Part shown: positions 5,033 through 61,719 of the stretch, piece by piece | Layout of the letters: the number at the start of each line of letters is the position of its first letter | How positions within the stretch are numbered: position 1 is the stretch's first letter | Source: Alphaproteobacteria bacterium | GTDB taxonomy: Bacteria; Pseudomonadota; Alphaproteobacteria; UBA9219 | Length of the DNA: 64,000 nucleotides | Assembly: GCA_031291395.1 (NCBI GenBank) | Contig: JARLJD010000138.1 | Coordinates: 3,860-67,859, forward strand | Direction of reading: 5' to 3' | Notes under the pieces: generated by a model | Database searches by the model: none | What the model saw: only the letters and a program-made list of their open reading frames with translations | Told to the model about the DNA's origin: nothing | Made by a program: the position numbers and the translations under genes

Positions 5033-5376
5033 GCCGTTGTCTCCTTTAATCTTTGTCTGCCGATTGCTAAATCTTCCGGCGGCGTTTCTCTGGTTTTTTT
5101 AATGAACGCGTGTAACGCGATCACCTTTCCTTCATGAAAGCCGAAAAGAACGCGAGCTTCCCGTTTGCTCGGCAACGAAGACCGTATTTCCCAAAGCCCA
5201 CGGCTAAGCGGGCGACACACAGGCAGACCGATAGGCCAGCCAAATTGCACTTTGGCAATATCATGTCCTATGGTTCTCTGGTCGTTGCGCGAAAGCTCGT
5301 TCAACCACTCCCGCACCGGCTCGCGTCCTGCGGCTGATTTCCAAAAAACCAAAGATATAGGCTTCAATCTATCCAT
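5029..5376 (-). CDS. higB: RelE/ParE-superfamily toxin (HigB-like addiction-module killer protein)
   Basis: 115 aa; Gp49/HigB-like sequence (REPVREWLNELSRNDQ...GLWEIRSSLPSKREARVLFGFHEGKVIALHAFIKKT). Confidence 0.65.
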   Translation of the reverse strand: MDRLKPISLVFWKSAAGREPVREWLNELSRNDQRTIGHDIAKVQFGWPIGLPVCRPLSRGLWEIRSSLPSKREARVLFGFHEGKVIALHAFIKKTRETPPEDLAIGRQRLKETTA

Positions 5377-5517: not shown

Positions 5518-6564
5518 ATGCTCATAACGAGCATAAATAACCCTTTCTGCGGACAAGGAGTCCTTATGGGCGTTAGCTCTTCCCAAACCGCCGCGGCGCT
5601 GGAGCGCACCGCCGCGATTTACGAACGCGTCAGATCCGTCATTCCCGCGATGGAGTGGACGGTCTTTGCCGACGACGTCGACGCGATCTTGCGGCTGAAG
5701 AAAGAACGCAAGGCGGTCATTCTTGCCCACAACTATATGCGCCCCGAAATTTTCCACGGCGTCGCCGATATGCGGGGCGACTCGCTGGCTTTGGCGCGAG
5801 AAGCAGCAAGTGTCGACGCCGAGGTTATCGTTATGGCGGGCGTGCATTTTATGGCCGAGACCGCGAAACTGCTGAACCCCTCGCGCACGGTTTTGATTCC
5901 CGATCCGCAAGCGGGCTGTTCGCTGGCGGAGGCGGTGACGGCCGAGGACGTGCGCCTGATGCGCCAGCGTTATCCGAACACGCCGGTTGTCACTTATGTC
6001 AACACCTCGGCGGCGGTTAAGGCGGAATCCGACATTTGCTGCACGTCGGGCAACGCGAAAAAGATCGTCGAATCCTTGGGCGCAAAGCAGGTCATCATGC
6101 TGCCGGACAAATATCTGGCGCAAAACGTCGCCAGAGAAACAAACGTCAAAATCATCACATGGGAGGGACGCTGCGAGGTGCATGAACGCTTCACCGCCGC
6201 CGACATCGCTTTGTTCCGCGAACAAAATCCGGGGATCGTTATTCTGGCGCATCCCGAATGCACACCGGAAGTCGTCGCTGCCGCAGATTATTCCGGCTCA
6301 ACCGCAGGCATGATCGATTGGGTCGGCCAACATAAACTTGCCCGCGCCGTTCTTCTGACCGAATGTTCGATGAGCGACAATGTGGCCGTCAGCTACCCCG
6401 AAACCAGCTTCGTCCGTCCGTGCCAGCTTTGTCCGCATATGAAACGCATCACGTTGGCGAACATCCGCGCTGCGCTTGAGACTATGACACATGAGGTGAC
6501 AATTCCCGACGCGATCATCCCCGCCGCAAGACGCGCGGTTGAACGCATGATCGCGGTTAAGTGA
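5518..6564 (+). CDS. nadA: quinolinate synthase NadA (true start may be Met at 5566)
   Basis: KAVILAHNYMRPEI, MAGVHFMAETAKLLNP, three-domain NadA-like sequence; stop overlaps nadB start. Confidence 0.9.
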   Translation: MLITSINNPFCGQGVLMGVSSSQTAAALERTAAIYERVRSVIPAMEWTVFADDVDAILRLKKERKAVILAHNYMRPEIFHGVADMRGDSLALAREAASVDAEVIVMAGVHFMAETAKLLNPSRTVLIPDPQAGCSLAEAVTAEDVRLMRQRYPNTPVVTYVNTSAAVKAESDICCTSGNAKKIVESLGAKQVIMLPDKYLAQNVARETNVKIITWEGRCEVHERFTAADIALFREQNPGIVILAHPECTPEVVAAADYSGSTAGMIDWVGQHKLARAVLLTECSMSDNVAVSYPETSFVRPCQLCPHMKRITLANIRAALETMTHEVTIPDAIIPAARRAVERMIAVK

Positions 6565-8087
6565 TGCAACCCATCATCCTCGGTGCAGGCCTCGCCGGAC
6601 TCTCCGCCGCTTTGGCGCTTGCGCCTATGCCGGTCATTCTGGTTTCGCCTTGCGCGCTTGGCGAGGGGTGCGCCAGCGCGTGGGCGCAGGGCGGCATCGC
6701 GGCTTCGGTTGGCGCGGACGACGAGGCCGGACTTCATATTCAAGACACGCTGGCCGCCGGAAACGGCATCAACGACTTTGCTATCGTGCGGCAGACTTTG
6801 CAAGACGCGGCGCAGGTCATCGACCGATTGACAAAGGCGGGCGTAGCCTTCGACCGCGATACGCAAGGCCGCTTGTCGTTGGGGCTGGAAGCGGCGCACA
6901 GCCGCCGCCGCATCGTTCGCGCCAAAGACGCGACAGGGTTTGTCGTGATGCAGGCCTTGATCGAAGCCGTGCGCTCTACGCCCTCGATCATGCTCATCGA
7001 AAACGCAACCGCGCAGGATTTGCTGGTTGACGGGGCCGTCACCGGCGTTGTTCTGCGTCAGCAAGAAAAAGAAATCACACTGCAAACAGATTGCCTTGTT
7101 TTGGCGACCGGCGGCTCTGTGGCTTTGTGGCGCGACACGACCAATCCGCATGAAAACTGGGGCCAAGGTCTCGCGCTGGCGGCGCACGCAGGCGCGACGC
7201 TCTGCGATCTGGAATTCGTGCAATTCCACCCCACGGCGATTGATATAGGCCGAGACCCGATGCCCTTGGCCAGCGAATCCTTGCGCGGCGAGGGCTGCGC
7301 CTTGATCGATGAAACAGGCGAGCGTTTTACCGATGAACTTCAGCCGCGCGATGTCGTCACTCGCGCGATCTGGGCGCAAATCGCGCAAGGGCACAAAGTC
7401 TTTCTGGACGGACGCAAGGCTTTGGGTAAAAATTTCAAAGAACATTTCCCGACTATCTATGAAATCTGCGCCTCCGCCGGCATCGACCCGGCCACAATGC
7501 CCATCCCCGTCAAACCCGCCGCGCATTATCATATGGGCGGCGTGGCCACCGACGCGCAAGGCCGCACCGACGTTCCCGGCCTGTGGGCCTGCGGCGAAGT
7601 CGCCTGCACAGGGTTGCATGGCGCGAACCGGCTTGCGAGCAATTCCTTGCTTGAGGCCGCGAGTTTCGGGTGGCGGGTGGGGGAGGGGATAAAGAATGCG
7701 CCATGCCAAGAACAAAAAATTTGTCATCCTCGCAAATGCGGGGATCCATCTTGGCCGCAAGAAAGGAAGAAAGAAAGATGGATCCCCGCATTCGCGGGGA
7801 TGACGAGCGGAGATAGCGTCCGCTCCCTTATGTCCGACTCCGTCGGCGTCATCCGCGACAGTGCTGGACTGCAACGCGCCATGGCGCACTTATCGCCCTT
7901 GGCGCATCAATCCGACAAAGCTCTCGTCGGCCTGATGATCGCCGCCTGCGCTTTGAAACGCGAGGAAAGCCGCGGCGCGCATTTCCGCAGCGATTTTCCA
8001 AAGGCACAAAGTTTGGGACGACGCTCTGCATTCAGATTTGCCGATTTAGTCGACGTGAGGAAACAGGTGAATCTGTTTGATGGTTAA
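6561..8087 (+). CDS. nadB: L-aspartate oxidase NadB carrying an in-frame ~84-bp palindromic MITE insertion
   Basis: FAD-binding N-terminus ILGAGLAGLSAALALA, HYHMGGV, GANRLASNSLLEA, C-terminal ESRGAHFRSDFP; inserted peptide ...KICHPRKCGDPSWPQERKKERWIPAFAGMTSGD... Confidence 0.9.
   Translation: MMQPIILGAGLAGLSAALALAPMPVILVSPCALGEGCASAWAQGGIAASVGADDEAGLHIQDTLAAGNGINDFAIVRQTLQDAAQVIDRLTKAGVAFDRDTQGRLSLGLEAAHSRRRIVRAKDATGFVVMQALIEAVRSTPSIMLIENATAQDLLVDGAVTGVVLRQQEKEITLQTDCLVLATGGSVALWRDTTNPHENWGQGLALAAHAGATLCDLEFVQFHPTAIDIGRDPMPLASESLRGEGCALIDETGERFTDELQPRDVVTRAIWAQIAQGHKVFLDGRKALGKNFKEHFPTIYEICASAGIDPATMPIPVKPAAHYHMGGVATDAQGRTDVPGLWACGEVACTGLHGANRLASNSLLEAASFGWRVGEGIKNAPCQEQKICHPRKCGDPSWPQERKKERWIPAFAGMTSGDSVRSLMSDSVGVIRDSAGLQRAMAHLSPLAHQSDKALVGLMIAACALKREESRGAHFRSDFPKAQSLGRRSAFRFADLVDVRKQVNLFDG
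7723..7806. mobile_element. MITE family-2 (short derivative) inserted in frame within nadB
   Basis: tgtcatcctcgcaaatgcggggatccatc ... gatggatccccgcattcgcggggatgacga inverted repeat; same TIR as the 28119 and 41900 copies. Confidence 0.6.
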
Positions 8088-8206: not shown

Positions 8207-9076
8207 ATGCCCCTCTCTCCCCTGCCTGATCTCATCCTGCGCCCTTTGGTCGCAAACGCCTTGTGCGAAGATTTAGGCCGCGCGGGAGACATAACGACCG
8301 ACGCGATTATCCCGCCGGACATGCAAAGCCGCGCCAAACTGAATGCGCGTCAAACGGGCATCCTTGCCGGTTTGGATCTGGCGCGTCTGGCCTTTCAGCT
8401 TTTCGACCCTACCGTTATTTTCACGCCCTTGAAACAAGACGGCGAGGCGATCAGGACAGGCGACAGCCTCGCGCAAGTTGAAGGGGCCGCGCGTAGCCTT
8501 CTATCCGCCGAACGTGTGGCCTTGAACTTTCTGTGTCATCTCAGCGGGATAGCCAGCGAAACGCATAAACTGGTTGAGGCCGTCAAGCCGCATAAAGCGC
8601 GCATCTGCTGCACGCGCAAAACCACCCCGGGACTCAGAGCGATTGAAAAATACGCCGTGAAAGCGGGGGGCGGAAGCAATCACCGCTTCGGTCTCGACGA
8701 CGCCGTGCTGATTAAGGACAACCACATCGTCGTCGCCGGAAGCATTAAAAACGCTGTCGAACGCGCGCAGAGTGCCGTAGGGCATCTTGTTAAAGTCGAA
8801 ATTGAAGTCGATACGCTGGCGCAACTGGACGAGGCGCTGGCTTTGCTCTCCGCCATGCCGATCGATGCCGTACTGTTGGACAACATGCAGCCTGCGCAAC
8901 TGAAACTGGCGGTTGAAAAAGTCGCCGGTCGATTGACGGTCGAAGCTTCGGGTGGCATCACCCTCGAGTCTGTTGCCGCAATCGCCGCCACAGGCGTAGA
9001 CGTGATTTCCGTTGGCGGGATCACGCACAGTGCACCGATATTGGATATCGGGCTGGATATAGTTGGAGATCAATAA
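8207..9076 (+). CDS. nadC: nicotinate-nucleotide pyrophosphorylase (quinolinate phosphoribosyltransferase) NadC
   Basis: 289 aa; NadC-like sequence and nadA-nadB-nadC operon context. Confidence 0.9.
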   Translation: MPLSPLPDLILRPLVANALCEDLGRAGDITTDAIIPPDMQSRAKLNARQTGILAGLDLARLAFQLFDPTVIFTPLKQDGEAIRTGDSLAQVEGAARSLLSAERVALNFLCHLSGIASETHKLVEAVKPHKARICCTRKTTPGLRAIEKYAVKAGGGSNHRFGLDDAVLIKDNHIVVAGSIKNAVERAQSAVGHLVKVEIEVDTLAQLDEALALLSAMPIDAVLLDNMQPAQLKLAVEKVAGRLTVEASGGITLESVAAIAATGVDVISVGGITHSAPILDIGLDIVGDQ

Positions 9077-20519: not shown

Positions 20520-20577
20520 CGGGGGGTTTTCCTATCGAATAAAACGTGACTTTTTGCTGCGAAAACCGGCGCTGATA

Positions 20578-20775
20578 ACCCCTCCCCGCCCGCCCTTGCA
20601 GGGGGAGAGGGGGGATACTGACGTTCGAGCAAAAGCAAAAGGCGAGATGGGGTGAGGTGGGTGGTCGAGGGCAAAAATAATCCTCACCACCCACCTCACC
20701 CTTTTCGTTCTACGGCGAATGTTCAACGTTCTGTCTCCCCCCGCAAGGGCGGGCGGGGAGGGGGTAACAGCGCCG
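20578..20775. repeat. REP/MITE family-1, long (~200 bp) variant between the gtrA-like and GT2 genes
   Basis: outer arms cccctccccgcccgcccttgcagggggagagggg / ccccccgcaagggcgggcggggaggggg, inner arms ggggtgaggtgggtggtcgagggc / cctcaccacccacctcaccc; near-identical to the 47763 copy. Confidence 0.6.
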
Positions 20776-20792
20776 TTGTTTATGCGAAAAAA

Positions 20793-24728: not shown

Positions 24729-27700
24729 ATGAGCTTCTCCGCCACTTTTATCAAACGTCCGGTCGCGACCACGCTTTTGACGTTGGGCATTGCGCTGTCC
24801 GGCGCTGTGGCCTTCTTTTTGTTGCCGGTGGCGCCTTTGCCCCAAGTGGATTTTCCTACCATTTTGGTCGAAGCGGGCATTCCGGGCGCAAGCCCCGAAA
24901 CGATGGCGACCAGCGTCGCCACGCCTTTAGAGCGGCACCTCGGCCAGATTGCCGACGTGGCCGAGATGACCTCGACCAGCACGATCGGCAATGCGCGCAT
25001 TACGCTGCAATTTGGTCTTGACCGCGATATCGACGGCGCGGCGCGCGATGTGCAGGCGGCGATCAACGCCGCGCGCGCCGATTTGCCCTCAAGTCTCAAA
25101 AGTAACCCGACCTATCATAAACTGAATCCCGCCGACGCGCCGATCCTGATTTTGGCGCTGACGTCGCAAACCATGACGCCGGGCCAGATTTACGATGCCG
25201 GATCGACCGTGCTGGCACAGAAGCTGTCGCAGATTAAGGGCGTCGGTCAGGTTCGTATCGGAGGCAGCTCACTGCCCGCCGTACGCGTCGAGTTAAACCC
25301 GCGCGCTTTGTCCCATTACGGCATCGGGCTGGAGGATGTTAGAGCCGCCCTTGCCGCCGCCAACGCCAACAGCCCCAAGGGCGCTTTGGAAGAGCAAGAC
25401 CGGCATTTCCAGCTCTACACCAACGATCAGGCTTTGCACGCCGACGATTACCGCAATTTGATCATCGCTTGGCGCAACAGCGCGCCTGTGCGCCTCGGCG
25501 ACGTGGCCGAGGTTAAGGATTCGGTCGAGGATTTGCGAAATCAGGGGCTTTTCAACGGCAAGCCCGCCGTCATCCTGATCGTCACCAAACAGCCCGGCGC
25601 TAACGTCATCGACACGATCGACCGCATCAAGGCGGAATTGCCTAATCTTAAAGCCTCTATCCCTTCGGCGATCGCCTTGACGGTGGCGCTTGATCGCACC
25701 ACGACGATCCGCGCTTCGCTGCGCGATGTCGAAAGCTCAATGCTGATTTCGACGTTCCTTGTCATTATGGTGGTGTTTTTGTTCCTCCGCAACGCGCGCG
25801 CGGCGATGATTCCCAGCGTCGCCGTGCCGGTGTCGATGGTCGGAACTTTCGGGATCATGTATTTACTGGATTACAGTCTCGATAATCTGTCGCTGATGGC
25901 GATGACGATCGCGACCGGCTTTGTCGTCGACGACGCGATCGTGGTTCTGGAAAACGTCATGCGCCACATCGAAAGAGGCATGCCGCATTATAAAGCGGCG
26001 GCGCAAGGCGCGAAGGAAGTCGGCTTTACGGTTTTGTCGATGAGCTTGTCGTTGATCGCAGTCTTCACGCCAATTTTGCTGATGGGCGGCATCGTCGGCC
26101 GCCTGTTCCACGAATTCGCGGTGACGTTGTCGGTCGCTATTCTCGTATCCCTGCTGGTGTCCTTGACCGCGACGCCGATGATGTGTTCGCGCTGGCTGGG
26201 CACGGGAACCAAACACGCGCATGCCGGAAAAGCCCCTCTCCCCACTCTTGGGGGGAGAGGGGTTGGGGTGAGGGGGGCTATGGGGATTACCCATGACGCC
26301 CCCCCTCACCCTAACCCTCTCCCCCCAAGAGGGGGGAGAGGGAATCATCGCTCCCTGCTCAACCGCATTTTCGACCTCAGCGAGAACGGTTTTACCCGCT
26401 TGCGCCGTGCCTACGACCTGACCCTCATGCGTGCGCTGCGGCACCGACGGCTGGTGATGCTGATCTTGGCCGCGACTTTGGGACTGAACGTCTATCTGTT
26501 CATCGTCGCCCCGAAAGGCTTCTTCCCGCAACAAGACACAGGCGGGATTATGGGCAATCTGGTGGGCGATCAGAACATATCGTTTCAGGCGATGAAGAAG
26601 AAAATGATCGACTTTGTCGGAATCGTGCAGAAAGACTCTGCCGTCGATACGGTCACGGCTTTTACTGGCGGCGGTTCGACTAATTCTGGCTTTCTCTTTA
26701 TGTCGCTGAAACCTAAAGCCGAGCGCAACGCCTCCGCGGATCAGGTCATCGCCCGCTTGCGCAAGCCGATGAGCCGCATTCCCGGCGCCACTTTGTTTCT
26801 TCAATCCGCGCAGGATTTGCACATGGGCGGCAGAGCCGCGAACGCGCAATACCAGTATACGCTGCAATCCGACAGCCTTGCCGCGCTGCGCGAATGGACG
26901 CCCAAACTGACCGAGGCGTTGCAGCACGACCCTTTGCTCAGGGACGTCAATTCCGATCAGCAGGACGCCGGTATGGAAACCGACGTGATCGTTGATCGCG
27001 ACACGGCGTCACGGCTGGGACTGAACACGATGCAGATCGACAACGCGCTCTACGACGCCTTCGGCCAGCGTCAGGTTTCGGTGATTTACAATACGCTTAA
27101 CCAGTATCACGTTGTGATGGAAGTCGCGCCCGAATACTGGCAAAGCCCGGAAACGCTGAAAGAACTTTTTATCAGCACTTCGGGCGGCAGCCTCAGCGGC
27201 ACCGAAGCCTCCAGTTCCAGCCTCAGCGCGGCGGCGCGCGCGGCGGCCACCAACGCGCTGGCGGCAACCGGCCACGGCGGCGCCATGACCGGAGCCGCCG
27301 TCAGCACGACCGCCGAAACGATGATTCCCTTGTCGGCGTTCAGCGCGGTCGAGGCCAGCTCCACGCCGCTTTCGGTCAATCATCAGGGGCATTTTGCTTC
27401 GTCGACGATTTCTTTCAACCTGCCGGTCGGCAAGTCCCTAAGCGACGCCACAACGGCGATTAACAACGCCACGCGAAAGATCGACATGCCCGCAAACGTT
27501 ACCGGCGGTTTCCAAGGCACGGCGCAAGTCTTTCAGCAATCGCTGGCTAATGAGCCAATTCTGATACTCGCGGCCTTGCTCGCGGTTTATATCGTGCTTG
27601 GCATTTTGTACGAAAGCTTGATCCACCCGCTGACCATTCTCTCCACTTTGCCCTCGGCAGGCGTGGGCGCGGTCGCGGCTTTGATGCTTTTCCATATTCC

Positions 27701-28118: not shown

Positions 28119-28260
28119 CCGTCATTCCCGCGAAAGCGGGAATCCATCGCCGCGCGTCTGCGCGGCAAAAGAGTCAAACTGCGGTTCAATCGGAAACCTC
28201 TCTGGACTCATATGCCTGCTATCACTCGCGCTGGCTTCCCGCTTTAGCTGGAATGACGAC
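28119..28260. mobile_element. MITE family-2 (~140 bp, ~30-bp TIRs) between the RND and OMF genes; its right end contains the OMF start codon
   Basis: ccgtcattcccgcgaaagcgggaatccatcgc ... cttcccgctttagctggaatgacgac; internal sequence is the reverse complement of the 41900 copy. Confidence 0.65.
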
Positions 28261-33952: not shown

Positions 33953-34090
33953 GAGGCGAAACGGCCTTTGCAGGCAAGAGGTTCAATCTAAACTGCCGAG
34001 GCAGGGCAGGGGGCGACGGCGTGTATGTCGGCGCAAAGGAATAAGTGAAACAACTTTTGTAAGTTGGAAACAGCAGTGAGACAAAAGCGG

Positions 34091-34258
34091 CGGGATTCCC
34101 TCCCCCTCGCGGGGGGGGGTTGGGTGGGGGGGGTGTGGGCAGAGTCCAAGTTTGGGCTTATTTTCCTTCTGCCGCGAAGTTGTTGCTAATTCCTGATCGT
34201 GATTCTAGCCGCTCTCCCCCCTCCCTAACCCTCCCCGCGAGGGGGAGGGGATTCTACC
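34091..34258. repeat. REP/MITE family-1, large-loop variant in the asmA-like/trpE divergent intergenic region
   Basis: gggattccctccccctcgcggggggg...gttgggtgggggggg ... ccccctccctaaccctccccgcgagggggaggggattc. Confidence 0.6.
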
Positions 34259-34476
34259 GCTTTTGCGGCACTACTGTTTCTGACTTACAAAAAAACAGGC
34301 TCATTCACTCCTTCACGTCGGCTATGCTTTGGGACGCGTCATAAAACCCCTTAAAAGAGGCTTGCTTAGGGTAGCGGAACTTCCCCCCGATTTCAAATTA
34401 TGTTTGGATTCACCTCTGGCGCTCAAAAAACGCGGGATTATAATGCGGCCTTCGCTTCTCCACCCAAGGCCTTTGA

Positions 34477-36075: not shown

Positions 36076-38250
36076 TTACCGCATTGTTGTGTTTGAAGCC
36101 TTATCCAGCGCCTTCAAAACATCCTCCCGCGTTAACAATTCCGGCAGCACAATCCCCTGTTTCGCCTTTGGCCCGAACACGATGTTGAAGGGGATTCCAT
36201 AACGTCCGTATTGATGCAGAAGCTTGATCACGACCGGATCGGGATTGGTCCAGTCGGCTTGCATCGCCACGGCGTCGGAATGAAACAGGCGTAGGGCGAT
36301 CTCCGGCTTTGACAGAACGAAGGTCTTGTTCGCTTTGCAGGTTAGGCACCAATCGGCGGTGACATCGAGAAAAACGGTTTTGCCTTCGGCAATGTCGGCA
36401 TTCAGCGCGGCCTCGTCGAATTTTACCCACGCGCCATCGGTCTGCGGCTGCGCTTTCGGCATGTTTGCGCCGCTGATGCCCATGGCCAAAGCGGCGAAAC
36501 AAAGTGCGGCGAGACACGACAAAACGCGTTCGCGGCTCATCCCGCGTTTGCGCAAGGCCAGCAAAAGCTCAATCGCAATCATCAAAAAGCCAAAACTCAA
36601 AGCATAGGCCGTCGTGATCTGCGCCGCTAAAATCCCTATCAGCCACATCGCCGTTAGCGCGAGGGCAACACCGAGAAAACGGCGCAGCCAAAGCATCCAG
36701 CGACCCGGTTTGGGTAGCATCGTCGCGGCGCGTGGAAATGCCGCTATGGCGAGATAGGGCAGGGACATCCCCAATCCCAAACCCGCAAAAATGGCGACTA
36801 TGTCCCAACCGCCGGACGCCAGAGCGAATCCGATTGCCGTGCCGAGAAACGGCGCGGAGCAGGGAGTGGCCAACAGCGTCGCAAAAGCGCCGGTTGCAAA
36901 ATCGCCCGCCAGTTTGGGATGCCACGCGCTGTCCAGCGTATCGGCCAGAAAGCGCGGCAGCGGAATTTCAAACAATCCCCACAAATTGGCGGCAAAGAAA
37001 GTCAGCAACAGCACAAGGAACATCAAAAAAACCGGTTGTTGGAACTGAACGCCCCAGCCGATTTCTCCCCCCAAGTTTTTCAGCGCGGCCATAATGCCCG
37101 CCAGAGACAGGAACGAGAACAAAATTCCCGCCGCCGTCATCAGAAAGCTTTGCCGTACGCGGCGCGTCTCGCCGCCGCCGTGGCCGACGAGGCTGACGAT
37201 CTTAAGCGACAGAACCGGCAACACGCAAGGCATCAGGTTCAAAATGAAACCGCCCAAAAGCGCGAACAGAAACGCCGGAAAAAAAAGCGTTGCTGAAGCC
37301 CCTCTCCCCCCGCTTGGGGGGAGAGGGGTTGGGGTGAGGGGGGCGGCGGGTTTATATTCTCCACCGCCCCCCTCATCCTGACCCTCTCCCCCCAAAAGGG
37401 GGGAGAGGGAATCTGCCTGCTTGGAAACCAAAACATTTTTAATCTCCACCGCCCGATCGCCACTTGTGATCGTCAGAGTCAGCGGCAATTTGTCCAGTGT
37501 CACGCCCGCGGGAAGCTTGTCGAGCGGCTTGATTTTCAAGGTCGCCTCGGTGCCGGACGGCGCAAGCGTGACTTCGGGCGCGCTGAAGCCGATCTCCTTG
37601 TCGTTTTCGACAAAAACATCCGGCTGCGTCATCGCCTCGCGCGAGGCGATGGAGAGCGTCAGGCTTTGCCCGTCGCTTGTAATGTTTTTTAAGAAAATGC
37701 CGGAACTTTTTGAATCCGTTGGAACTTTAGCGCGCGCTTGACGTAAAAGATCGGCTTCGGCGCTGTCCCGCGCCGCGCCCGCCGGAACGGTCAGCTTCAA
37801 GTCGAAATGCTTGGGCACGCACATCGAACTGCACACAAGAATATCGGCCGAGACTTCGGCGTTCAAACCTTGCCCCGCTTTGCGCAAAACCGCGTCGATG
37901 GGGAAAATCACATGATCGCGATAGCCGATCGTCTCCATCCCAAAGGCGGTATAGCGGCGCGGGGCGGGATACAGTAGCGTTGCGGACTGCAAATTATTCG
38001 CATCGTTTTGGCTGCGGTTCCAATCCAATTGCGGCGGCAGCCCCGCTTCTCCGGGCGAGCGCCAATAGGTATGCCAGCCGTCTTTCAGCTCCAGCTCCAG
38101 CCCTAGAGGCACCGTCGCGTTTGTGCCCACGGCATCGCTGCTGGAAATCAGCCTCGCTGCCACGGCATCGTCTTGTACCCACCCTCCGCACAAGGCAAGA
38201 GCCTGTGCGGGGAGAAGCAGAAGCAGCGCGGCGAGAAAAAAACGGAGCAT
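36076..38250 (-). CDS. dsbD: thiol:disulfide interchange protein DsbD with an in-frame REP insertion in the linker; ORF extends to 38301
   Basis: signal peptide MLRFFLAALLLLLPAQALA with GAAGG RBS; central TM domain LMPCVLPVLSLK; C-terminal thioredoxin ADWCLTCKANK; inserted peptide [32 protein letters not shown]. Confidence 0.85.
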   Translation of the reverse strand: MLRFFLAALLLLLPAQALALCGGWVQDDAVAARLISSSDAVGTNATVPLGLELELKDGWHTYWRSPGEAGLPPQLDWNRSQNDANNLQSATLLYPAPRRYTAFGMETIGYRDHVIFPIDAVLRKAGQGLNAEVSADILVCSSMCVPKHFDLKLTVPAGAARDSAEADLLRQARAKVPTDSKSSGIFLKNITSDGQSLTLSIASREAMTQPDVFVENDKEIGFSAPEVTLAPSGTEATLKIKPLDKLPAGVTLDKLPLTLTITSGDRAVEIKNVLVSKQADSLSPLLGGEGQDEGGGGEYKPAAPLTPTPLPPSGGRGASATLFFPAFLFALLGGFILNLMPCVLPVLSLKIVSLVGHGGGETRRVRQSFLMTAAGILFSFLSLAGIMAALKNLGGEIGWGVQFQQPVFLMFLVLLLTFFAANLWGLFEIPLPRFLADTLDSAWHPKLAGDFATGAFATLLATPCSAPFLGTAIGFALASGGWDIVAIFAGLGLGMSLPYLAIAAFPRAATMLPKPGRWMLWLRRFLGVALALTAMWLIGILAAQITTAYALSFGFLMIAIELLLALRKRGMSRERVLSCLAALCFAALAMGISGANMPKAQPQTDGAWVKFDEAALNADIAEGKTVFLDVTADWCLTCKANKTFVLSKPEIALRLFHSDAVAMQADWTNPDPVVIKLLHQYGRYGIPFNIVFGPKAKQGIVLPELLTREDVLKALDKASNTTMR
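37297..37413. repeat. REP/MITE family-1 copy inserted in frame within dsbD
   Basis: gcccctctccccccgcttggggggagaggggttggggtgagggggg ... cccccctcatcctgaccctctccccccaaaaggggggagagggaatc. Confidence 0.65.
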
Positions 38251-38340: not shown

Positions 38341-38456
38341 GGGATTCCCTCTCCCCCTCTTGGGGGGAGAGGGTTAGGGTGAGGGGGGACTCGGGAATTA
38401 TATCCGAACCGCCCCCCTCACCCCGACCCTCTCCCCCCAAGAGGGAGGAGAGGGAG
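38341..38456. repeat. REP/MITE family-1 reference copy (intergenic, dsbD/yqgE divergent region)
   Basis: gggattccctctccccctcttggggggagagggttagggtgagggggg - loop - cccccctcaccccgaccctctccccccaagagggaggagagggagtc; outer arm is itself a palindrome. Confidence 0.7.
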
Positions 38457-41899: not shown

Positions 41900-42039
41900 T
41901 CGTCATTCCGGCGAAAGCCGGAATCCAGCGCGAGCGATAGCGAGCATATGAGTCAACGGAATTTCAATTTGAATCGCAGCCGGACTCTTGTGCCGCGCAG
42001 ACGCGCGGCGCTGGATTCCGGCATTCGCCGGAATGACGA
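41900..42039. mobile_element. MITE family-2 full-length copy (inverted relative to the 28119 copy) upstream of thrC
   Basis: tcgtcattccggcgaaagccggaatccagcgc ... gcgctggattccggcattcgccggaatgacga perfect ~32-bp TIRs; internal gactcatatgctcgctatcgctcgc matches the reverse complement of the 28119 copy. Confidence 0.7.
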
Positions 42040-46820: not shown

Positions 46821-47762
46821 TCACCACGTCGTATTGCATGCGCCGTTCCCGAACATGCTGACCAGCGCGTTGCGGTCGGCGTAGGCGAGGACGTCGTCGT
46901 AAGGATCGGTATCTCCTACGACGGTCATAGCGTCGACGAAATTCGCCGTGCCTGCGGCGTTACATTTAGGATAACCGCTATAGGCGCTGCAAGGGTTGTA
47001 GGTTGCAGATGATGGATTGTTTGGTGGCGATGGAAACGGCATTTGCCACCCTTGTTGGAGACTTGCAACATAAGAACCGTAGCCGGTCGAACCATAACTG
47101 ACGAAAATGACAGCGGCTTTCTGCGATGTGCCGTTTGGCGTCGATACAGTGATAGGTACGGCGTTGCTGGCCGCGCTAAGATTGTATTTGCATAGCCCTT
47201 TATCCGAATATCCGACCGGCGAACCGCTTTGCGCCGCACAGTACCCGCTGCTGTAATCGGCGGTTGTGCAAAGGGCGGTTGGAGGAATAAATATATAATT
47301 GGAACAGGAGTTGCTCGCAGTCCCGCAATTCGCGGGGTTTGTCAGCGCCGGATCAACTCGCATCGTGATCCAGTGTCCCCAGCCGTCATGCGCGGTCGAT
47401 GCGGGAAGGCCGAGGGAGACATAAGGCGGAATGCCTTCGGGCGACGAGCAGATGCCGCAGGCATTTGGCGTCGGTTTGCCGCTGGTATTTATTATGTAAC
47501 TTGTTTCTGTCCCAAAACCGGTTCCGCTCGTAGCGGCGGGGCAGGGGAGGCAGCCGTTGGCCTGAACATAAGCCGCGGTCGCCAGCATCAGGCTGCGCAG
47601 GTTGCTTTGCGTCAGGGACAGTTGGTTGGCGGAACGGACTGTGTTCAGCGCAGGTAGAACCGTCAGCATCACAAGCCCCATAACGACCAAAACCACGGCC
47701 ATTTCGACGAGGGTGAAGCCAGAGCGCGATGTATCGTCTTTGGAACAAAAAACGACGGTCAT
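46821..47762 (-). CDS. large Cys-rich prepilin-type protein (type IV pilin/pseudopilin-like, class III signal); ORF extends to 48044 through a REP
   Basis: MTVVFCSKDDTSRSGFTLVEMAVVLVVMGLV prepilin leader with G/FTLVE cleavage-methylation motif; 14 Cys in the mature region; GGAGAGGGG RBS comes from the adjacent REP. Confidence 0.6.
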   Translation of the reverse strand: MTVVFCSKDDTSRSGFTLVEMAVVLVVMGLVMLTVLPALNTVRSANQLSLTQSNLRSLMLATAAYVQANGCLPCPAATSGTGFGTETSYIINTSGKPTPNACGICSSPEGIPPYVSLGLPASTAHDGWGHWITMRVDPALTNPANCGTASNSCSNYIFIPPTALCTTADYSSGYCAAQSGSPVGYSDKGLCKYNLSAASNAVPITVSTPNGTSQKAAVIFVSYGSTGYGSYVASLQQGWQMPFPSPPNNPSSATYNPCSAYSGYPKCNAAGTANFVDAMTVVGDTDPYDDVLAYADRNALVSMFGNGACNTTW

Positions 47763-47968
47763 AGCCCCTCTCCGCCCGCCCTTGCGGGGGGAGAGGGGAG
47801 ATGCCGACGTTCGAGCAAGAGCAAAAGGTTGAATGGGGTGAGGTGGGTGGTCGAGGGCGTGAATAATCTTCGGAACCCACCTCACCCCTTTCGTTCTGCC
47901 GCTCTTGTCCCGCGTTCTGTCCCTCCCCTCTCCCCCCGCAAGCGCGGGCGGAGAGGGGTTATCAGCGC
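47763..47968. repeat. REP/MITE family-1 long variant abutting the start codon of the Cys-rich pilin gene
   Basis: near-identical to the 20578 copy (gaatggggtgaggtgggtggtcgagggc ... cccacctcacccc; outer gcccctctccgcccgcccttgcggggggagagggg). Confidence 0.6.
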
Positions 47969-48028
47969 CGTTTCCGTTGTTGAAGAGCAGGGGGCTTTCC
48001 ATAATTGTTTTTCCAGCCTTTGCCTTCC

Positions 48029-58951: not shown

Positions 58952-58974
58952 GAAAGAAATACGGCGCTTTTTTC

Positions 58975-59043
58975 GCAGGCACGGCTTCCAGCCGCGACCT
59001 TTTTGTGTTTGCGTCAACAGTCGCGGCTGGAAGCCGTGCCTGC
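58975..59043. terminator. long perfect inverted repeat (24-bp arms, 21-nt spacer) between the convergent HK and ABC genes; preceded by a conventional hairpin+T6 terminator at ~58931..58976
   Basis: gcaggcacggcttccagccgcgac ... gtcgcggctggaagccgtgcctgc; upstream gccgtattc...gaaatacggcgc tttttt. Confidence 0.5.
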
Positions 59044-59056
59044 GAGAGGATAAACT

Positions 59057-61629: not shown

Positions 61630-61719
61630 GGAGAGGTGGCAGAGCGGTCGAATGCGGCGGTCTCGAAAACCGTTATAGGTCTATGCCTATCAAGGGTTCG
61701 AATCCCTTCCTCTCCGCCA
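61630..61719 (+). tRNA. tRNA-Ser (anticodon CGA), class II with long variable arm
   Basis: 7-bp acceptor stem ggagagg/cctctcc, D loop agcggtcgaa, anticodon loop ctCGAaa, 5-bp variable-arm stem atagg/cctat, T loop ttcgaat, discriminator g + CCA. Confidence 0.85.

Follow-up and report, generated by a model that had tools for sequence, protein, structure and literature searches.

Why should nadB, the gene for L-aspartate oxidase, carry within its reading frame a palindrome of 84 bp that is translated as part of the enzyme, and by what route did the palindrome come to be there? The gene lies in a 64-kb stretch of an alphaproteobacterial metagenome-assembled genome (MAG; contig JARLJD010000138.1), the whole of which we call the window, and in an original prediction the palindrome had been described as a miniature inverted-repeat transposable element (MITE) of a 'family 2' with further copies at 28119 and 41900. 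We argue here that it is very likely an inverted doublet of a hairpin motif, known from Neisseria as the Neisseria Transformation Sequence (NTS) and more broadly as the 'Ssn-related motif' (SRM), which was fixed in a linker of nadB and which persists there as a tolerated passenger and not as a functional module.

The element is in frame within a single open reading frame (ORF) of 508 aa, as had been predicted, and the peptide that it encodes (KICHPRKCGDPSWPQERKKERWIPAFAGMTSGD; the element corresponds to residues 388-415) is present in NadB. Its inverted-repeat arms (7723-7752 and 7775-7804; 30 nt each and 22 nt apart) are complementary at 28 of 30 positions (93%), the left arm differing from the right arm by two changes, and the element folds into a 34-bp stem, with -31.2 kcal/mol as single-stranded DNA (z -7.2) and -58.4 kcal/mol as RNA (z -9.4). 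The 28-mer of the right arm, with up to three mismatches allowed, has three matches in the window (both nadB arms and 28121-28148) and none in 100 dinucleotide-preserving shuffles of it. The element is open in four of its six reading frames, the TGA inside ATGAC shutting one frame per strand, and the nadB-resident elements use stop-free frames only. Predicted tryptic peptides from the insert include CGDPSWPQER and WIPAFAGMTSGDSVR. When the whole window was scanned against Rfam the sole match was a tRNA gene (Table 1), and no family covers the element.

The link to the NTS and SRM was found through a full-text literature search with the DNA string; a search with the translated peptides gave no match. 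Chenal et al. (Nat Commun 2025, PMC11893778) define the NTS as CGTCATTCCCGCGMAVGCGGGAATCYRG, with the dRS3 core ATTCCC-N8-GGGAAT inside it, and place it within the broader class of SRM, present in many bacteria. According to the same paper, SsnA, a small nuclease of the GIY-YIG type, binds and cuts the NTS hairpin solely as single-stranded DNA, ssn genes are typically flanked by these repeats across many bacteria, and transformation in Neisseria is modulated by NTS repeats (PMC11893778). The published, degenerate SRM pattern (HGTCWYN(0-2)YYVSBRHN(0-5)WNVSBRGN(0-2)RNCYNB) has five matches in the window, all of them within the three elements of Table 1, as compared with a mean of 0.65 and a maximum of three in shuffles. 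The arms that the original prediction took for the terminal inverted repeats of a transposon are therefore copies of the hairpin motif recognised by Ssn GIY-YIG nucleases. Under the strict definition of PMC11893778 (at most one mismatch to the consensus, which is that of Neisseria) the only NTS in the window is the 28120-28147 copy, with one mismatch. Five of the six window arms have one to four mismatches to this consensus; for the nadB element the right arm has four and the left arm more than four over the strict 28 nt, or three and five, respectively, over the 26-nt NTS core. Both nadB arms carry the compensated form ATCCCC...GGGGAT of the hairpin, and we would class the nadB copy as an SRM variant and not as a canonical NTS.

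Two further copies in the window, both intergenic and of a longer form, share with the nadB element the termini CGTCATTCC(C/G)GCGAAAGC(G/C)GGAATCCA; in the 41901-42038 copy the arms extend to 37 nt and are 92% complementary. The long form in this alphaproteobacterial group measures ~105-143 bp and has a conserved interior (secondary palindromes, CATATGAGTCAA), which is common to both intergenic window copies and to the nadB-resident copies at the related loci L001, L003, L004, L005 and L007 (z 3-11). The interiors of the 28120 and 41901 copies are mutually homologous (z 7.3) but are not homologous to the nadB copy, whose spacer does not significantly resemble the interior of any other copy compared. 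The grouping of the three elements as 'family 2' consequently stands for their termini and fails for what lies between them.

Beyond the window, species-representative genomes were scanned with the 25-nt terminus, and this gave at least 120 loci, distributed over Proteobacteria, Bacteroidota, Chloroflexota, Planctomycetota, Nitrospirota, Acidobacteriota, groups of the candidate phyla radiation (CPR) and others. Among the matches listed, the cultured genera are Povalibacter, Devosia, Sphingomonas, Massilia, Sphingopyxis and Thiohalobacter (Povalibacter, Devosia and Sphingomonas are also listed as repeat-rich in PMC11893778), and there are 104 unpaired half-sites and 70 inverted pairs; since 38 of these 70 pairs span 70-89 bp, the 84 bp of the window element is a typical size. 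In this same set of listed matches a ~26-nt terminal module is conserved across phyla and the spacers are unrelated, while conservation of the flanks is limited to YC/GTCAT...ATGAC/GR (the slash marking the junction). In the family alignment 92% of cells in the 8-bp terminal stem are paired, and there are 69 compensatory cells, whereas 1000 shuffles gave 17.6 on average and never more than 27. A nuclease gene accompanies the repeat at one locus from an Omnitrophota MAG (L099), where an NTS-like doublet (7557-7640) directly abuts the start codon of a gene for a 97-aa GIY-YIG nuclease (7260-7550, minus strand; Pfam 9e-17); this is the repeat-nuclease arrangement as described for ssn. Doublets often occur in tandem clusters, ~110-240 bp apart and near-identical in units and flanks (as at L052 1314-1819, L029 6910-7378, L074 519-703 and L024 1877-4019), which suggests local duplication or insertion beside existing copies.

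The nadB copy is not the only one to be translated. Among the matches listed, 4 of the 69 paired elements from other genomes are in-frame doublets in verified housekeeping genes, which encode MurF, Tgt, a UvrA-like protein and TruB (Table 1), and in all four the Pfam domains run on past both sides of the insert.

As to the host gene, its identity as nadB, put forward in the original prediction, is confirmed by Pfam (FAD_binding_2, E=2.5e-79, and Succ_DH_flav_C), by its closest solved structures, which are the L-aspartate oxidases 1CHU, 1KNP, 5KXJ and 2E5V (PDB matches at 1.8e-80), and by its neighbours nadA and nadC. The order nadA-nadB-nadC is found again at the loci of relatives, with Pfam NadA, and with QRPTase_N/C downstream of nadB. 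The protein has the FAD-binding, capping and C-terminal helical domains, and six of its residues (E110, H223, R263, H322, R357 and S360) do not vary among 38 aligned orthologues. These residues align with E. coli E121, H244, R290, H351, R386 and S389, which we take to be the active-site residues, as is echoed in part by the title of 1KNP ('mutant R386L'); at the level of sequence, the conserved catalytic residues agree with the predicted, otherwise intact enzyme. A collection of 5.8 billion proteins holds, besides its own record, no protein >72% identical to the window NadB, the next-best relatives being 70-72% identical. At three related loci a gene with the Pfam domain WHD_NrtR adjoins nadA (L001 1965-2861, L003 502-1398 and L005 3785-4867). 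WHD_NrtR is a domain of regulators of NAD metabolism.

Table 1. Positions of the elements, their host and neighbouring genes and comparable in-frame doublets; features for which no other locus is named lie in the window.
Feature	Locus	Position	Strand	Remarks
Inverted doublet of NTS/SRM hairpin motifs, 84 bp		7722..7805	.	nadB codons 388-415, exactly 28 codons
Left arm, SRM motif TGTCATCCTCGCAAATGCGGGGATCCAT		7722..7749	+	Exact SRM pattern match; in-frame reading CHPRKCGDP
Spacer GGCCGCAAGAAAGGAAGAAAGA, A/G-rich		7753..7774	.	Separates the two 30-nt arms; supplies the loop residues WPQERKKE
Right arm, SRM/NTS motif CGTCATCCCCGCGAATGCGGGGATCCAT		7778..7805	-	Exact SRM match; plus-strand reading WIPAFAGMT
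Intergenic long-form element, 139 bp		28120..28258	.	Same NTS termini; mismatches to NTS: one in left arm, three in right
Intergenic long-form element, 138 bp		41901..42038	.	Same NTS termini, ATTCCGGC/GCCGGAAT compensated variant; both arms exact SRM matches
nadB (L-aspartate oxidase, 508 aa; insertion host)		6561..8087	+	Single ORF, Pfam, PDB relatives
nadA (quinolinate synthase)		5518..6564	+	ORF; 3' end overlaps nadB start
nadC (quinolinate phosphoribosyltransferase)		8207..9076	+	ORF downstream of nadB
tRNA gene		61630-61716		Rfam
MurF doublet, Massilia sp.	L027	1562-1643		Inside Mur_ligase_M domain
Tgt doublet, Parcubacteria MAG	L039	6951-7037		TGT domain split into two stretches
UvrA-like protein doublet	L063	7194-7279		Between UvrA_inter and DNA-binding domains
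TruB doublet	L071	1690-1766		Inside TruB_N

In an AlphaFold2 model of NadB built on the 38-sequence alignment (predicted local distance difference test, pLDDT, 86.2; predicted template modelling score, pTM, 0.88; template modelling score, TM, 0.85 to 1KNP and 0.81 to 2E5V), residues 388-413 are the only long stretch with pLDDT <50, and this stretch coincides with the insert. The low-confidence coil connects helix 361-379, with which the FAD-binding domain ends, to helix 414-427, with which the C-terminal helical domain begins. The tolerated surface loop that had been proposed is supported by this predicted disorder: as modelled, the insert is most likely a largely charged, disordered surface loop of 28 residues, and most likely the enzyme is intact despite it. 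Since the insert lies in a length-variable interdomain linker, the catalytic core should be untouched, and we infer that the enzyme is active and that the peptide is retained in the mature protein. Conceivably the insert is not free of cost, if RNase III were to cleave the transcript or ribosomes to pause on it.

The linker itself, that is, the segment between ...GANRLASNSLLEAASFGxRVAEDI and ...IRxxMSDxVGVIRD, is hypervariable in both length and sequence in the 38-orthologue alignment, and in the 118 orthologues of the clade whose anchors could be used the baseline length is 37-43 aa, compared with 54 aa in the window; the segment is thus naturally variable, as predicted. On a neighbour-joining (NJ) tree calculated with the linker masked (and without support values) the window NadB groups with two orthologues, P0003 (linker 39 aa) and P0020 (41 aa), whose DNA has no significant trace of the element. 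The nearest orthologues are therefore without it and do not share the segment as ordinary sequence, and the element is an addition in this lineage.

The addition is not, as the original prediction had it, a one-off insertion, since the same linker carries family elements in seven other orthologues. Peptides derived from the NTS, of the types SFPRKRESS, HSRESGNP, WIPAFAGMT and DSRFRGND, occur in 8 of the 118 clade NadBs (the window, P0004, P0014, P0016, P0018, P0033, P0118 and P0119), always within this linker, the rest of the protein being free of them, and the element was confirmed in DNA for seven carriers, the window and six of the seven others (the DNA set being without P0018). No NTS was found in the linker at any of 57 more distant metagenomic NadB loci (38-54% identity), and because of this difference (8/118 versus 0/57) the hot spot appears to be restricted to this clade. 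The copies range from near-perfect to decayed. That of L005 is near-perfect and 143 bp long, has both arms in frame 3 and resides in a NadB 53% identical to that of the window; that of L001, also near-perfect, measures 107 bp and has its left arm in frame 2 and its right arm in frame 1; those of L003, L004 and L007 are decayed, as is the left arm of L006. By their spacers (73-80% identity, z 3.9-11) the copies of L001, L003 and L004 clearly go back to one shared event. To judge from frames, sizes, arm sub-variants and spacers, there were at least three separate events, represented by the window, the L001 group and L005, and L006 is probably a fourth.

Several smaller observations concern these loci. 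Both arms of the L001 nadB element (5137-5162 and 5216-5241) carry the identical stem-disrupting variant GCGGG to GCTGG, which points either to the arms having been homogenised or to their source copy having been variant already. In L005, the genome that also holds a full-length element in the nadB linker, an extra NTS copy (7632-7657, minus strand; two mismatches to the core) lies at the junction of nadB with nadC, at the extreme 3' end of the former. Within native nadB the conserved GVIRDxAG codons resemble the NTS, with CGTCATCCGCGAC... matching at 17 of 26 positions in the window (7847-7872) and at 19 of 26 in L009 (1542-1567), and this look-alike forms a 76% inverted repeat with the right arm of the element. 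As the seed of a hot spot it was rejected, the mismatches averaging 12.3 in carriers and 12.9 in non-carriers. L008 was rejected as a decayed terminus (P 0.05-0.08, not significant). A search for an older element beneath the window copy, or for remnants, gave P >0.3 for L009 and for the segments before and after the window element.

Considering the mechanism, we favour the reading stated at the outset, in which one doublet would have become fixed inside nadB in this alphaproteobacterial lineage, and in which the insert persists because it comprises exactly 28 codons, has no stop in the frame that is used and falls in a disordered linker of variable length. We infer that it may have been mobilised or copied by a pathway that employs an Ssn-type nuclease. 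Some of our results weigh against this reading. Although the element encodes 28 aa, so that the predicted figure of ~28 added residues is right for the element itself, the linker has gained only 13-15 aa over those of P0003 and P0020. Because the nearest orthologues are only ~70% identical, there is no true empty-site allele among them and the exact boundaries of the insertion cannot be defined. The left junctions cluster, lying 3-9 nt from the EDI codons in all the non-window carriers, and MAFFT sets the window junction in register with them, the extra 23-24 nt of the window being taken as an upstream insertion; a passive filter for a permissive loop does not, on its own, predict such clustering. 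Further, the nadB arms depart from the strict Neisseria NTS (the right arm by its four mismatches), so that recognition by any particular Ssn is putative, and a motif search of the 64-kb window at regex level, weak as such a test is, turned up no Ssn or GIY-YIG gene.

The recurrence at this site may reflect repeated insertion with some preference for the target. The clustered junctions also bear on a different history, in which a single ancient insertion was inherited vertically, decayed in some lineages and was renewed in others by gene conversion from copies elsewhere in the genome, possibly stimulated by Ssn cleavage, so that the window copy would be a renewed or replaced version and not a fresh insertion. 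Such a history would suit the constant use of one linker and the restriction to one clade, the frame of the right arm, which is shared by six of the seven carriers whose DNA was compared, the left junctions that align in register (window, AAAAAATTT/GTCAT; L007, AAAAATTC/GTTAT; L005, GAAAATT/GTCAT), the event shared by L001, L003 and L004, the small net gain of the linker and the presence of near-perfect copies in hosts as deeply diverged as L005. However, neither P0003 and P0020 (P 0.05-0.8) nor the 33-nt pre-element segment of the window has a significant remnant, the frames of the left and right arms differ (3/1 in the window, 2/1 in the L001 group and 3/3 in L005), the window spacer is unrelated to all others and, on the linker-masked tree, carriers are scattered among non-carriers. 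We consider a single ancient origin unlikely, though worth keeping in view.

Much the same low probability attaches to a broader proposal, namely that NTS/SRM doublets are cross-phylum 'coding palindromes' which include the palindromic elements of Rickettsia (RPEs) and which are spread by Ssn-cut, homing-like gene conversion. Ssn GIY-YIG nucleases would cut the hairpins in single-stranded DNA, with copying from other genomic copies to follow, and renewal driven by a nuclease would account both for the near-perfect yet differing elements in one linker of deeply diverged lineages and for the clustering of their junctions. According to PMC10969869, which reviews Ogata et al. 2000/2002, RPEs are palindromic repeats that lie in frame in unrelated housekeeping genes and whose peptides are predicted to be compatible with the fold. 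The doublets described here behave alike, with in-frame insertion at fold-compatible positions in NadB and, in other genomes, in MurF, Tgt, the UvrA-like protein and TruB; the likeness is one of behaviour, and RPEs are ~150 bp long and described only in Rickettsia. As a lead only, Rickettsia is listed among the genomes with >300 SRM elements (PMC11893778).

Returning to the tolerated passenger that we favour, we consider it improbable that the element has instead been co-opted, whether as an mRNA structure that controls nadB (through RNase III or a ribosome pause), as a site of recombination or transformation at the nad operon or as a loop with a new function. The very stable RNA stem (34 bp, with the folding energy and z given above), the modulation of Neisseria transformation by NTS repeats (PMC11893778), the hairpin-preserving covariation across copies and the recurrence at one site might each be read in this sense. 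Yet most orthologues, the nearest included, do without the element, the copies of L003, L004 and L007 have decayed, the peptides vary by frame and spacer so that none is conserved, the left arm in the window is already two changes away from the right arm, and the covariation belongs to the family and not to the nadB copies.

The MITE of the original prediction, in its classical sense of a non-autonomous deletion derivative of an insertion sequence (IS) that is mobilised in trans, its terminal inverted repeats being recognised by a DDE transposase, fares worse still, and we regard it as very improbable. The inverted termini, the small size, the multiple copies and the want of a transposase gene are all as expected of a MITE, and the long-form copies keep a conserved interior, as a true element family would. 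But no target-site duplication accompanies the insertions: no k-mer of 2-9 nt, at offsets of up to 13 nt, is common to both flanks in more than 2 of 64 elements among the matches listed, and there is none at the three window copies. The termini are, moreover, an NTS/SRM motif conserved across phyla, the spacers between them are unrelated, and the 104 half-sites among the listed matches are unpaired. The only pair on a kilobase scale (L032, 1023 bp) encloses an ordinary gene, which by eye looks like that for ribosome-recycling factor, and neither a transposase nor a nuclease; the one associated gene that was seen encodes a GIY-YIG nuclease, and no transposase or autonomous IS with matching termini was seen in a non-exhaustive search of ~0.9 Mb of loci. 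Finally, although the source is a MAG and repeats can confuse assemblers, it is barely credible that a repeat was mis-assembled into nadB or that the gene is a pseudogene, given that 84 bp is shorter than typical reads, that the frame is kept exactly and without a stop, that the catalytic residues and the operon are intact and that the same kind of insert is found in the same linker in seven independent assemblies.

In architecture the element is REPIN-like, and not a classical MITE mobilised by a transposase. Repetitive extragenic palindromic sequences (REPs) are extragenic by definition, and RAYT, their associated protein, is a Y1 transposase of the IS200/IS605 type. The present family resembles REPs and REPINs in its inverted hairpin doublets with a spacer, in having no target-site duplication and many singlets, and in a small single-copy nuclease gene flanked by repeats; it differs in that the nuclease, in the literature and in L099, is of the GIY-YIG type and not an HUH tyrosine transposase, and in that a GTAG-type REP head is absent. 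Correia elements (NEMIS) are a Neisseria MITE, a small palindrome with long inverted ends, long RNA stems and TA target-site duplications. They share with the window element the small palindrome with long inverted ends and the long stem formed by its RNA, but their termini are unrelated, and no duplication was found for the window family. A further comparison is with the dRS3 repeats and intergenic mosaic elements (NIME) of Neisseria: each arm has a dRS3-type core, ATTCCC-N8-GGGAAT or its compensated variant, and the long-form copies, as a variable segment bounded by two dRS3-type repeats, are like NIME (by description only), whereas the host here is an alphaproteobacterial MAG and the nadB copy is intragenic and in frame.

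Closest of all is the NTS/SRM-SsnA system itself (PMC11893778), whose authors themselves draw the analogy to REP/REPIN-RAYT. The motif, the hairpin with an oriented CGTCAT 5' flank, the many copies and the broad taxonomic spread are the same; the published repeats, however, are essentially extragenic (2% of the NTS of N. meningitidis lie inside genes), whereas translation makes the window doublet a part of an enzyme. In the main text of PMC11893778 a term search returned neither 'intragenic', 'RPE' or 'MITE' nor in-frame copies, the 2% figure being all that it says on repeats within genes, and our literature search found no later papers that tie Ssn or NTS to coding insertions or RPEs. The repeat family and the in-frame insertion of palindromes are thus both known, while their combination and the recurrent use of one linker appear to be undescribed.

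These results mean that hairpin doublets which are targets of a nuclease are also translated inside essential enzymes of several bacterial lineages, as RPEs are, and that the nadB linker is a repeatedly occupied intragenic site that offers a testable substrate for how such repeats spread. They bear on whether RPEs belong to the same system and on how proteins gain new surface loops, they account for widespread odd peptides in annotated proteins (...IPAFAGMT..., ...SFPRKRES..., ...HSRESGNP... and ...DSRFRGND...), and they warn that such inserts are not assembly errors.

The window contains further repeats. A second and more abundant palindromic family (CCCTCTCCCCCC...GGGGGGAGAGGG, with GGTTAGGGTGAGGGGGG-type extensions) is found at 67-206, 20562-20780, 26234-26342, 37300-37409, 38355-38445 and 47750-47973, and is presumably the 'family 1' of the earlier reader. 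Peptides resembling translations of this second family occur in P0053 and P0070 in the same NadB linker (...PPPNLPRKGGG) and in P0055 and P0063 at another site within the FAD-binding domain (columns ~163-223 of the alignment). A long imperfect inverted repeat with 92-nt arms, 78% complementary and 54 nt apart, lies at 34055-34292, and at 58973-59045 there is another, whose 26-nt arms (TCGCAGGCACGGCTTCCAGCCGCGAC / GTCGCGGCTGGAAGCCGTGCCTGCGA) are perfectly complementary and 21 nt apart and which belongs to neither of the two repeat families.

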